From: Octopus vulgaris | Taxonomy: Eukaryota | Direction of reading: 5' to 3' | DNA: 64,000 nt | Assembly: GCA_951406725.2 (NCBI GenBank) | Contig: OX597835.1 | Location: 682,001 to 746,000 of the forward strand | Part shown: in pieces, positions 32,438 through 39,899 of the stretch | How positions within the stretch are numbered: position 1 is the first letter of the stretch | Layout of the letters: every line of letters starts with the position of its first letter | The notes under the pieces: generated by a model | What the model was told of the DNA's origin: nothing | Databases searched by the model: none | The model's input: the letters and a program-made list of their open reading frames with translations, nothing else | Made by a program: the position numbers and the translations under genes

Positions 32438-32606
32438 AATAAAATGAGATAGGGGTTGAAAATTCAACCCACCATGGGATAATATATATCCAATATACTG
32501 CTAGATAGGTACCCAACAAAATTAATACATAGATGTTAAAAATTGTCAAACAATCAGTTCATCTATTGTATTATATGGGTAAAGGTAATAATATTACCGT
32601 AAATTA

Positions 32607-35301
32607 ATACTACAAAATTAGAGAATGGAGAAACATACTTAAATCAGTAAAACATCAACTATCCGATGATACTCAATCCATACTTTAATACACCATTACA
32701 TATGAGTAAAGGCAATATATAAAATGAAATGAGATATACAGTAATAGTAAAAAGATAAAGAGATATAAGTAAAAAATTTCAAATATAATATGCAAATAAA
32801 TCAAAACTGACAGCTGTTTCGGCAGTGAGGACAGTCATACCTCATTTAACCTATAAGCCATAAAGGCAGGTATAAATGAGGCATTAACAAGGATGCCCCA
32901 CGGCCTCTTCAGAGAATTAAATTAAATTTGTTATAATAGTGAAAAATATTATATAATCATATACATATAAATATAAAAATATAAAAATGTAAAATATAAA
33001 AACTTATACATCATAATGCTACACTTATATAATATAATACACATTTGTACAAAAAGGAAGGTAAACAGAACAAAATAAAACAAAATATATAACAGTGTAT
33101 ATATTAATATTAATAAGTACCGATATTATACATATTTGGCTAATAGTTTTTTTTTTGTTTTTTTTTTATATATAAAAAAAAAAAAAAAAAAAAAAGGCTA
33201 ACACATATGGAGATGAAAAATAATAATTAAATCCGTGGTACAGTTCATAAAATTCTAAAGCTATAAAAGTTAATAAAAATTACTATTAATAATAATAATA
33301 ATAATAATAATAATAATAATAATAATAATAATAATAAAATAATAAAAATAGATACAGTTAAGTTAGCACCAAGTCCATCCTTTCAAGATCGAAATAACTA
33401 TGAGTTAAGAAATGCTGACCACTAGGTAAAGAAAATTTAGATTAATTCGATTGGCTATTGGTTTGAAATTTAAATCACAAAAGAAAATTATACGGTTGGT
33501 TAGTCAGGGAACGCCAATATTCACACACGCATCTACAGATCAATCGCACATACACACATAGTTATATGTATATACATACACTTATACACATACATAATCA
33601 CAAGCAACAACTAGCACTTAGATAAACAAAAAGGGAAGCAACTATGCTAACATTTAGTCCTTCAAAATTATAACTGAGCCTCAATAACAAAAAAAGAACC
33701 ATCCATGCATTCTATAAAATATTTAATTTAGATATAAATATATTTTTAAATATCAGTATGTTACTAATTCAGATAATTATTTCATGGGTAACTTAAAATT
33801 TATAACACCGGTTTGTTGCAGAGTAAACATACGGTTGTTAGATTTATCGTAAGTTTGTTATGATTATAAGTACGCTAAATTATAAAATATAAATATAAAA
33901 TATATATTAATTTAAATATTATAAATAAGTCACTTATTAACTTAATAAATATAGTGCCATAATATACCAGTTTAGGCATTAAAGAATAGAAGGGGAAGTA
34001 TTAATGTAAACGCTTATGAGAACATCACAGAAATTTTAAATAAATTTTATATTATAAAGACTTAAGATGAAAAGAGATAAAATAAATAAAAAGGAATAAA
34101 TACGAAGGAATAAATACGGTTATACACATAATTATAAGTACAAACTAGTATATATGTATTCATATATTATTAAAATTAAATAAAAATAAATGATAGATAT
34201 GTATGTATAAAACTACACCAGTATAAGTAAATAAGTAAAAAATAAATAGGTAACAAATTAGATGACTTGATATGTATGTAAACATCTACACTTAAATAGG
34301 CAAATAAATAAATAAATAGAAGACTAGATGCAAAGATTGATAATATTACAATAAAATGGGAAATAAATAAAAATAAATAAAGTGAATATATATATTTTAT
34401 ATTGTTGAAAGTAAATATGTATGGAAGGATAGTTTAAAGTACAGATCCAGAGGACTATAGATATAAACTAAATATATGAGGCTGGTAATAATTATAAAGC
34501 AAAATGCATGTAAATGAGAAAATGAAAAAAAAAATGAAAAAGGTTTATCAGTGAATAGCATAAGATACAAATTAAGGTGAGTACAAAAAGACCAAATATA
34601 TAATAAAAACCTTCCAAATAAACACATACAAAAAACCTATAATCTCAACCTAAACCCACCAAACTCACAAAAGGCTCTCATATATTACATATTATACAAT
34701 ATCATTACATTATCCAGAGCTAGGTATCTAACCAAGATATACATATATACTATGCAATATACTATGCAATATTGGAAAACTTCAAAAATCACACATTACA
34801 AGGCAAATACCAAAATGAATATGTTATTTTATGTCATATTGCATTTCTCTTAAAAAAACAAACAAAAACCCACATACAAAAACCAAGAAACCAATAATAC
34901 TAGACACATCCATTAATTATTATACAAATGTAGCTATAAAAATTATAAAATTATGAAATTTATAAATTGTATACTTTAGAATTATAGAAGACCACAGGTA
35001 TATTTAGTTAAAGAAGGGAATTAAAAAATTAATAATAGTGGAAGTGCTAAGTTCTATTTGAATCTAGAAAAGGTGAACGGTAGCCTATGAATACAAAAGA
35101 AGTTTTTTCATTAATGTTGTTAATAATTTGCCGACCCGCTTTAATAATGAAGAAAATTTCATTAATACATAGAGAGCATTTTTATTTTTTCCATTATACA
35201 CAGGTGCTGAAGTTAGTATTTTCCAGTTTAATCTAAAATCTAAGTTCTTACTTTTAAGTTCCCAAATGTATGCACTTAGCCCTGTAGAGTACATTCTATT
35301 T
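32607..35301 (-). repeat. Left arm of the PLE inverted repeat
   Basis: Reverse complement of 37217-39899 with only scattered substitutions and homopolymer/microsatellite length differences. Confidence 0.95.
32803..32918 (-). ncRNA. Putative hammerhead ribozyme (left arm, sense to the PLE ORF and to the cadherin pre-mRNA)
   Basis: Reverse complement of the 39588-39703 motif. Confidence 0.7.
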
Positions 35302-37216: not shown

Positions 37217-39899
37217 AAATAGAATGTACTCTACAGGGCTAAGTGCATACATTTGGGAACTTAAAAGTAAGAACTTAGATTTTAGATTAAACTGGAAAAT
37301 ACTAACTTCAGCACCTGTGTATAATGGAAAAAATAAAAATGCTCTCTATGTATTAATGAAATTTTCTTCATTATTAAAGCGGGTCGGCAAATTATTAACA
37401 ACATTAATGAAAAAAACTTCTTTTGTATTCATAGGCTACCGTTCACCTTTTCTAGATTCAAATAGAACTTAGCACTTCCACTATTATTAATTTTTTAATT
37501 CCCTTCTTTAACTAAATATACCTGTGGTCTTCTATAATTCTAAAGTATACAATTTATAAATTTTATAATTTTATAATTTTTATAGCTACATTTGTATAAT
37601 AATTAATGGATGTGTCTAGTATTATTGGTTTCTTGGTTTTTGTATGTGGGTTTTTGTTTGTTTTTTTAAGAGAAATGCAATATGACATAAAATAACATAT
37701 TCATTTTGGTATTTGCCTTGTAATGTGTGATTTTTGAAGTTTTCCAATATTGCATAGTATATTGCATAGTATATATATATATCTTGGTTAGATACCTAGC
37801 TCTGGATAATGTAATGATATTGTATAATATGTAATATATGAGAGCCTTTTGTGAGTTTGGTGGGTTTAGGTTGAGATTATAGGTTTTTTGTATGTGTTTA
37901 TTTGGAAGGTTTTTATTATATATTTGGTCTTTTTGTACTCACCTTAATTTGTATCTTATGCTATTCACTGATAAACCTTTTTCATTTTTTTCATTTTCTC
38001 ATTTACATGCATTTTGCTTTATAATTATTACCAGCCTCATATATTTAGTTTATATCTATAGTCCTCTGGATCTGTACTTTAAACTATCCTTCCATACATA
38101 TTTACTTTCAACAATATAACATATATATTCACTTTATTTATTTTTATTTATTTCCATTTTATTGTAATATTATCAATCTTTGCATCTAGTCTTCTATTTA
38201 TTTATTTATTTGCCTATTTAAGTGTAGATGTTTACATACATATCAAGTCATCTAATTTGTTACCTATTTATTTTTTACTTATTTACTTATACTGGTGTAG
38301 TTTTATACATACATATCTATCATTTATTTTTATTTAATTTTAATAATATATGAATACATATATACTAGTTTGTACTTATAATTATGTGTATAACCGTATT
38401 TATTCCTTCGTATTTATTCCTTTTTATTTATTTTATCTCTTTTCATCTTAAGTCTTTATAATATAAAATTTATTTAAAATTTCTGTGATGTTCTCATAAG
38501 CGTTTACATTAATACTTCCCCTTCTATTCTTTAATGCCTAAACTGGTATATTATGGCACTATATTTATTAAGTTAATAAGTGACTTATTTATAATATTTA
38601 AATTAATATATATTTTATATTTTATATTTTATAATTTAGCGTACTTAAAATCATAACAAACTTACGATAAACCTAACAACCGTATGTTTACTCTGCAACA
38701 AACCGGTGTTATAAATTTTAAGTTACCCATGAAATAATTATCTGAATTAGTAACATACTGATATTTAAAAATATATTTATATCTAAATTAAATATTTTAT
38801 AGAATGCATGGATGGTTCTTTTTTTGTTATTGAGGCTCAGTTATAATTTTGAAGGACTAAATGTTAGCATAGTTGCTTCCCTTTTTGTTTATCTAAGTGC
38901 TAGTTGTTGCTTGTGATTATGTATGTGTATAAGTGTATGTATATACATATAACTATGTGTGTATGTGCGATTGATCTGTAGATGCGTGTGTGAATATTGG
39001 CGTTCCCTGACTAACCAACCGTATAATTTTCTTTTGTGATTTAAATTTCAAACCAATAGCCAATCGAATTAATCTAAATTTTCTTTACCTAGTGGTCAGC
39101 ATTTCTTAACTCATAGTTATTTCGATCTTGAAAGGATGGACTTGGTGCTAACTTAACTGTATCTATTTTTATTATTTTATTATTATTATTATTATTATTA
39201 TTATTATTATTATTATTATTATTAATAGTAATTTTTATTAACTTTTATAGCTTTAGAATTTTATGAACTGTACCACGGATTTAATTATTATTTTTCATCT
39301 CCATATGTGTTAGCCTTTTTTTTTTTTTTTTTTTTTATATATAAAAAAAAAAAAAAAAAACTATTAGCCAAATATGTATAATATCGGTACTTATTAATAT
39401 TAATATATACACTGTTATATATTTTGTTTTATTTTGTTCTGTTTACCTTCCTTTTTTGTACAAATGTGTATTATTATATAAGTGTAGCATTATGATGTAT
39501 AAGTTTTTATATTTTACATTTTTATATTTTTATATTTATATGTATATGATTATATAATATTTTTCACTATTATAACAAATTTAATTTAATTCTCTGAAGA
39601 GGCCGTGGGGCATCCTTGTTAATGCCTCATTTATACCTGCCTTTATGGCTTATAGGTTAAATGAGGTATGACTGTCCTCACTGCCGAAACAGCTGTCAGT
39701 TTTGATTTATTTGCATATTATATTTGAAATTTTTTACTTATATCTCTTTATCTTTTTACTATTACTGTATATCTCATTTCATTTTATATATTGCCTTTAC
39801 TCATATGTAATGGTGTATTAAAGTATGGATTGAGTATCATCGGATAGTTGATGTTTTACTGATTTAAGTATGTTTCTCCATTCTCTAATTTTGTAGTAT
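37217..39899 (+). repeat. Right arm of the PLE inverted repeat (inverted pLTR)
   Basis: Duplicated peptides in the ORF track (37224..37472 vs end of 35085..36245; 37892..38119 vs 34397..34627). Confidence 0.95.
39588..39703 (+). ncRNA. Putative type I hammerhead ribozyme with extended stem II (right arm)
   Basis: CTGAAGA 39594-39600, long stem II, GAAA 39686-39689, palindromic stem III ACAGCTGT, GTC triplet 39695-39697; stem I weak. Confidence 0.7.

Follow-up and report, generated by a model that had tools for sequence, protein, structure and literature searches.

A 64,000-nucleotide (nt) stretch of the Octopus vulgaris genome (assembly GCA_951406725.2, contig OX597835.1, positions 682,001 to 746,000; hereafter the window, in whose own numbering all positions are given) carries a large foldback within an intron of a cadherin gene. 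It consists of a Penelope-like element (PLE) joined head to head to an inverted copy of its own 3' end. By its motifs and domain order the element is a member of the Hydra clade of PLEs, the tree that we built holding relatives only. A young, 5'-truncated copy was probably inserted together with the inverted copy in a single event, reverse transcription being primed from the two ends of a (TA)n tract that had been cut. Judged from the anatomy of the locus in the assembly, the foldback appears to be real; neither the clade nor the arrangement is new, and the element stands out as young and unusually long. The parts of the locus are as follows; RT stands for reverse transcriptase and UTR for untranslated region.

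32438..37216, minus strand: main element copy (4,779 nt), 5'-truncated at 37216
37217..39899, plus strand: inverted 5'-truncated copy (endonuclease C-terminus and 3' UTR), joined head to head at 37216/37217
36517..37216, minus strand: RT core from just before RT2, reading GRISK ... FDIQNYY ... MGSPDSAEVTDLVG ... GLYRDD ... SNHP
36380..36538, minus strand: thumb of the RT, bounded by frame breaks 1 and 2, each of which lies in a C5 run
35472..36386, minus strand: Asn-rich linker, with shorter Asn-rich versions in the relatives P0001, P0002 and P0209
35054..35471, minus strand: C-terminal GIY-YIG endonuclease, with CNCRNKNKC (CxCX5C), VVYQC...VYIG, CSLC, E, N, CIH and stop
32607..35053, minus strand: AT-rich 3' UTR, about 24% GC, 2.45 kb as far as the end that both arms share
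32438..32606, minus strand: one-sided tail, 169 nt, with predicted hairpins (folding z -2.4 and -2.7)
32804..32923, minus strand: type I hammerhead motif of the left arm, core 32912, cleavage site 32809, sense on the host pre-mRNA
39583..39708, plus strand: type I hammerhead motif of the right arm, CUGAAGA core 39594, GAAA 39686, cleavage site 39697
30848..32437: left (TA)n target tract, interrupted on the plus strand by 30 G and 1 C
39900..41190: right (TA)n target tract, plus-strand interruptions 42 G and 2 C, of the same polarity as the left and not mirrored
42912..43000, minus strand: cadherin exon on the upstream side, 89 nt, followed by a phase-2 GT donor at 42911
28216..28302, minus strand: downstream cadherin exon, AG acceptor at 28303, matching phase

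Self-alignment of the window paired 32607-35301 with 37217-39899 in inverted orientation. The two agree at 2,675 positions and differ by 5 substitutions and 10 gaps; the gaps are 1-3 nt long and lie almost without exception within homopolymer or microsatellite runs. This match is far beyond chance. The longest perfect stems reach 504, 466 and 428 bp. Each arm comprises about 0.25 kb of the endonuclease C-terminus and the 2.45-kb 3' UTR, and the two are separated by a spacer of 1,915 nt (35302-37216). The left copy runs on past the shared arm end through the tail, which has no counterpart on the right and brings the 3' region to about 2.6 kb. Element and inverted copy together span 7.46 kb. At either outer end a 3' end of the element borders on (TA)n, about 1.6 kb of it on the left and 1.3 kb on the right, and the 5' ends meet inside. 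No second copy of the element or of the tail was found elsewhere in the window. A first-pass annotation, made from the sequence alone, had described a PLE with an inverted copy at its truncation point, near-identical arms at exactly these coordinates, a left tail of about 170 bp and a long AT-rich 3' region, all of which our measurements bear out. It had also placed a 5'-truncated RT in the 1.9-kb spacer; the RT is indeed there, but it shares the spacer with the thumb, the Asn-rich linker and the GIY-YIG domain's first half.

Along the minus strand the main copy reads as truncated RT, thumb, Asn-rich linker, GIY-YIG domain, a stop at about 35055 and the AT-rich 3' region. Compared with full-length relatives, the RT N-terminus is short by about 185-233 amino acids (aa), and no open reading frame (ORF) start homologous to the N-termini of the relatives was found in the 3' region or the tail. 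The coding region has no in-frame stops and four frame breaks, at about 36535, 36380, 35183 (both arms) and 35105 (left copy only, the right arm being free of it). All four fall in runs of 5-6 identical bases; such runs make up 4% of the coding region. The break common to both arms sits in A runs at 35190-35179. As a protein from O. sinensis (XP_029653623.1, P0206) reads through breaks 1 and 2 and the right arm lacks the fourth, the breaks may be consensus errors of long-read assembly or the product of recent slippage. The first-pass annotation had correctly seen the same endonuclease C-terminal frameshift in both arms; as a sign of their common origin, however, it is poor evidence, because every break lies in a homopolymer run. 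Read-through by selenocysteine was ruled out, since the breaks shift the frame and are not in-frame TGA codons.

Structure prediction gave an endonuclease model (predicted local distance difference test, pLDDT, 89.9; input alignment of 8 rows, one of them an off-frame 38-aa piece) for which the top three of 48,161 chains were GIY-YIG nucleases, at weak Z scores of 5.5, 5.0 and 4.1. The best matches were I-TevI (Z 5.5, root-mean-square deviation 2.7, 67 residues aligned) and T4 EndoII (Z 5.0). Foldseek with the same model returned nothing at E <= 0.001, its best match again being T4 EndoII (E 0.11). In Pfam searches neither an RT nor a GIY-YIG family was detected in the ORFs of the window, and among the relatives P0004 alone gave a weak GIY-YIG match (E 0.003). 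The RT alignment gave no match in a sequence search of the PDB.

The first-pass annotation had held the RT and endonuclease motifs to fit the Naiad group. [quoted passage not shown] In the octopus element the RT (37216-36517) precedes the endonuclease (35471-35054) on the same strand, the opposite of the Naiad order. The CCHH motif of Naiads places two Cys inside the GIY-YIG core; the core here, VVYQCTVDTQLSSRVYIG, has a single Cys. Upstream of it, CNCRNKNKC at 35471 is not CX2-5CxxC and conforms to CxCX5C, in agreement with the Hydra rows of the Fig. S7 alignment (PMC8557442). CxxC and CxH are read in a single frame of the right arm (CSLCINE...NINEKNFFCIH). The divergent RT4 FDITMGSPDSAEVTDLVG and GLYRDD at RT5 are as in the 9 Hydra rows of that figure and unlike its 8 other-clade rows; likewise, FDITMGSPDSAE and GLYRDD depart from its Penelope, Nematis and Neptune rows. 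The RT aligns without gaps to Hydra-type proteins that carry RWR/RWK and DKT. The region upstream of the RT, which carries CxC and DKA in Naiads and RWK and DKT in the Hydra clade, was lost by truncation; relatives have DKT or DKS there, with RWK in most full-length ones. Between RT3 and RT4, where Naiads other than some exceptions have an insertion-in-fingers domain, the spacing is 62 aa, against 61-62 in six Hydra-type relatives, the group to which this measurement was confined (P0001 being mis-scored). The putative canonical hammerhead near the 3' end also fits Hydra and contradicts Naiad. What Naiad has in common with the element is the (TA)n target, which fits Hydra equally and does not discriminate, the inverted 5'-truncated copy, and occurrence in Octopus, where Naiad families are present. 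The domain order already refutes the Naiad reading, to which we give practically no weight. With the Hydra families described, such as Hydra-1_Obim and Penelope-13_HM, the element shares an RT followed by a C-terminal GIY-YIG domain, CxCX5C, absence of CCHH, CxxC/CxH, GLYRDD, the 3' hammerhead and (TA)n targeting. As Hydra-1_Obim is given, however, it has 2,507 nt, another ribozyme and about 45% RT3-RT5 identity (counted by eye), and hence is not the same family.

Each arm contains a candidate hammerhead ribozyme, which the first-pass annotation had missed. In both, stem II measures 85 nt, stem III is palindromic (ACAGCUGU in the right arm) and the distance to the shared 3' end is 202 nt, which falls within the published Hydra range; the motif of the right arm folds with a z score of -3.87. 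Rfam reported no hammerhead, only 10 weak chance matches, and the motif was found by a pattern instead. This pattern was matched in 0 of 1000 shuffles and once in 30 shuffled whole windows, figures to be read with the caution that it was tuned post hoc, the stem II minimum having been eased from 4 bp to 3 bp after the motif was seen. A second, minimal type I hammerhead motif lies at 6810-6855 on the plus strand (5-bp stem I, CUGAGGA, short stem II, GAAACGUU). It ends near (CT)n(TA)n, and no PLE ORF was seen nearby; it is likely to be a retrozyme or a solo PLE 3' end.

Seven relatives of 498-803 aa share the domain order at 32-48% identity. The O. sinensis protein P0206 belongs to the same family as the window element, its RT being identical over 144 aa. 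RT and thumb together show 0 differences in 196 aa, whereas 7 of 143 linker residues differ (95% identity; Fisher p 0.002), as would be expected of a recently functional family. The O. bimaculoides protein XP_052823602.1 (P0209; 54% over 110 aa) is a relative within the same group of seven rows, in which the window RT clusters with P0001, P0002 and P0206-P0209 (support 100/99). Asn-rich wherever the linker is visible, this group is possibly an expanded Hydra sub-lineage. RefSeq misnames such Hydra-clade fragments: XP_029653623.1 is listed as 'GATA zinc finger domain-containing protein 14-like' and XP_052823602.1 as 'DDB_G0287625-like'.

The arms differ by 0.19% substitutions (5 in 2,680 nt), consistent with the single recent insertion that the first-pass annotation had assumed. 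On a scale in which a Jukes-Cantor distance of 0.09 equals 25 million years (PMC13282606), this corresponds to about 0.26 million years (0.08-0.6), less if some differences are errors and more if the arms convert each other. Five substitutions are too few to judge an A-to-G bias between the arms. PLEs are reported to make up 6.83% of the O. vulgaris genome in 190 families, with 336 recent insertions averaging 5.4 kb (PMC13282606); long young PLEs are thus common in this species. Of the words sampled from 35310-39150, a span that is half arm, 20 of 24 listed sequencing runs (7 studies) contain 0.66-0.88. No RNA run was listed among them, which is evidence neither for nor against. The family with its long 3' region is therefore present in other samples, one of the runs possibly being the source sample; this result bears on the occurrence of the family and not on the 37216/37217 junction. 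A metagenome scan gave 319 pattern matches, of which 0 were confirmed.

The host gene is recognised by ten minus-strand exons that match, colinearly and at 76-89% identity, the O. bimaculoides cadherin XP_014782137.1, which carries the name protocadherin-23 or Fat 4-like. The element lies within a 14,609-nt phase-2 intron (42911-28303), its distance being 3.0 kb to the donor and 4.1 kb to the acceptor. As the flanking exons are colinear and their splice phases agree, the location in a cadherin intron proposed by the first-pass annotation is upheld. The later exons, which encode the membrane span and cytoplasmic tail in the O. bimaculoides orthologue, were not found in window positions 1-28200. 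A 100-N gap at 27554-27653 adjoins a 2.9-kb (TA)n tract and may conceal the later exons or mark a misjoin.

Is the foldback itself a product of assembly, the right arm being a mirror of the left as in a foldback read? The four homopolymer frame breaks and the 100-N gap suggest a noisy long-read assembly, and self-complementary (TA)n tracts are difficult to assemble. However, a foldback read mirrors everything beyond the turn, whereas here the mirroring ends at the limits of the element. The structure also has a 1.9-kb unpaired spacer, a one-sided tail and five substitutions between its arms. The interruptions of the two tracts are on the same strand on both sides, unique DNA differs beyond each tract, and the cadherin exons are colinear and in phase to either side. 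An artefact is consequently quite improbable. Less probable still, in our estimate, are two separate insertions in opposite orientation into the same (TA)n region, or an older structure homogenised by gene conversion. O. vulgaris does have many PLEs with recent activity and a microsatellite target in common, but the junction contains neither (TA)n nor target DNA, the 5' ends being joined directly. Gene conversion between the arms could not reach the spacer, which nevertheless matches the O. sinensis copy without a difference in RT and thumb.

A single event can be envisaged in two ways. In the one that we favour, the GIY-YIG/RT protein would cut both strands of one (TA)n tract. The first DNA end would prime at the outer RT start site (the tail end, 32438) and be extended by copying 4.78 kb, and the second would prime 169 nt further in and copy 2.68 kb. 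The two stalled complementary DNAs (cDNAs) would then be joined head to head, possibly via 1-4 nt of microhomology. The equal strand polarity of the two tracts is as expected of one split tract. A purified Poseidon-clade PLE protein, predicted to be a dimer, is reported to cut AT-rich DNA on both strands, to extend both, and to start reverse transcription at two positions inside the RNA, as far apart as the genomic tail is long (PMC11167929). Inverted 5'-truncated copies with one-sided tails are described as the standard PLE layout, Penelope-13_HM being a Hydra example (PMC8557442). The length of the arms would then follow from the 2.45-kb 3' UTR of the family and not from a special process. 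Less likely is that the inverted arm arose within the same event by self-priming (snap-back), a cDNA or antisense template being recopied from 35301 outward and stopping 169 nt short. Head-to-head PLE repeats have been proposed to arise by self-priming on an antisense template (PMC3846280). Immediately inward of the junction there is an 8-bp hairpin, and the near-identity of the arms would need no second RNA. Exact pairing of the cDNA end at 37216 with the bases beside 35301 is nevertheless 0 nt, there is no junction palindrome of the Adineta vaga type, and the loop would measure 1.9 kb. Nor does snap-back alone account for the stop of the second arm at what is plausibly a canonical 3' end, 202 nt past the ribozyme. 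Several points weigh against two-ended priming in turn. Relatives have D/E/Q and then L/I/M before G at the junction, which permits 1-4 nt of microhomology from the arm side, but the spacer side shows none (0 nt exact). The in vitro system belongs to the Poseidon clade and not to Hydra, and its tail has 30-40 nt. Both the junction microhomology and the tail as part of the element are tentative, and the present data do not tell the two mechanisms apart; on balance we place two-ended priming ahead, with snap-back the lesser of the two.

Most features of the locus are already known for PLEs, namely the inverted 5'-truncated copy, the one-sided tail, the (TA)n target, Asn-rich inserts and small interfering RNAs (siRNAs) from inverted repeats. 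What is new is the scale of this Hydra family (at least 4.8 kb, with a long 3' UTR and a long tail). Hydra elements are described as generally under 3 kb (PMC8557442), and the 27 families listed span 1.1-3.05 kb, whereas the window element has at least 4.78 kb even when truncated. It differs from these families in having a 3' UTR of 2.45-2.6 kb, a linker with Asn-rich expansions, a ribozyme stem II of 85 nt and a tail of 169 nt, the last being four to five times as long as the usual 30-40 nt. Its 2.7-kb arms are nearly three times as long as the inverted 5'-truncated copy of Penelope-13_HM (966 nt). The Penelope elements of A. vaga, as portrayed in PMC3846280, are alike in having head-to-head inverted pseudo-long terminal repeats (pLTRs), a one-sided tail, long Asn-rich inserts between RT and endonuclease, a long spacer before the 3' pLTR and small RNAs; they differ in that their pLTR arms measure about 180-220 nt and their tail 31 nt, and that account does not show them to be of the Hydra clade. 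Drosophila virilis Penelope (PMC3681739) likewise has long inverted repeats but belongs to the Penelope/Poseidon clade, and small RNAs were measured only there. No description of the present family was found in the literature searched; the 190 PLE consensus sequences of O. vulgaris may include it.

Other repeats and frames are scattered over the window. Broken non-LTR endonuclease and RT frames with stops occupy 16055-18547 on the minus strand, with a shorter related piece at 9673-9981; we take them to resemble RTE. A fragment at 11954-12436 (plus strand) resembles a Tc1/mariner transposase, its DESRF motif presumably being a mark of that group. At 14033-14359 (minus strand), a short frame with a hydrophobic, signal-peptide-like start is possibly the first exon of another gene.

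If the host gene is transcribed, the order in the pre-mRNA would be right arm in antisense, spacer, and left arm in sense with its ribozyme; the intron, which before the insertion already held 2.9 kb of self-complementary (UA)n, would be expected to fold a 2.7-kb duplex. This duplex would be hyper-edited by ADAR, and the intron would then be spliced out, probably with small effect on the cadherin mRNA. In squid, editing of the ubiquitous type is reported from introns and 3' UTRs, with a tendency to coincide with repeats (PMC9068888), and rearranged D. virilis Penelope copies with long inverted repeats are reported to yield siRNAs mapping to the inverted regions (PMC3681739). The suggestion of the first-pass annotation that the duplex is a double-stranded RNA substrate for ADAR or siRNA production is therefore reasonable, though not new. 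Ribozyme cleavage of the host RNA is unlikely, given that hammerheads with an unstable helix III are described as cleaving poorly as monomers (PMC4209133), that there is one copy per strand and that the duplex would mask them. AATAAA occurs on the host strand 35 times within the element (32438-39899) and once in the rest of the intron, an excess that reflects the A-richness of the element; premature polyadenylation at these sites, if it happened, would cut the cadherin before its membrane span.

As a single locus the foldback is ordinary, given the abundance of PLEs in O. vulgaris. Its family, however, widens the size range of the Hydra clade and is annotated as a host gene in RefSeq. The origin of the inverted ends and tails of PLEs is described as still open (PMC8557442), and arms of 2.7 kb carry enough variants to test priming on two templates against snap-back, which arms of 200 nt do not. 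A more far-reaching and speculative idea, which we think unlikely as it stands, is that an Octopus Hydra sub-lineage with a 2.5-kb 3' UTR routinely primes from two ends at start sites 169 nt apart and leaves multi-kb intronic foldbacks genome-wide. These would be a main source of long double-stranded RNA for ADAR and of siRNAs that silence the family, the duplex masking the hammerhead so that pre-mRNAs stay uncut. If this were true, foldback loci would be frozen records able to settle how the inverted ends of PLEs form.

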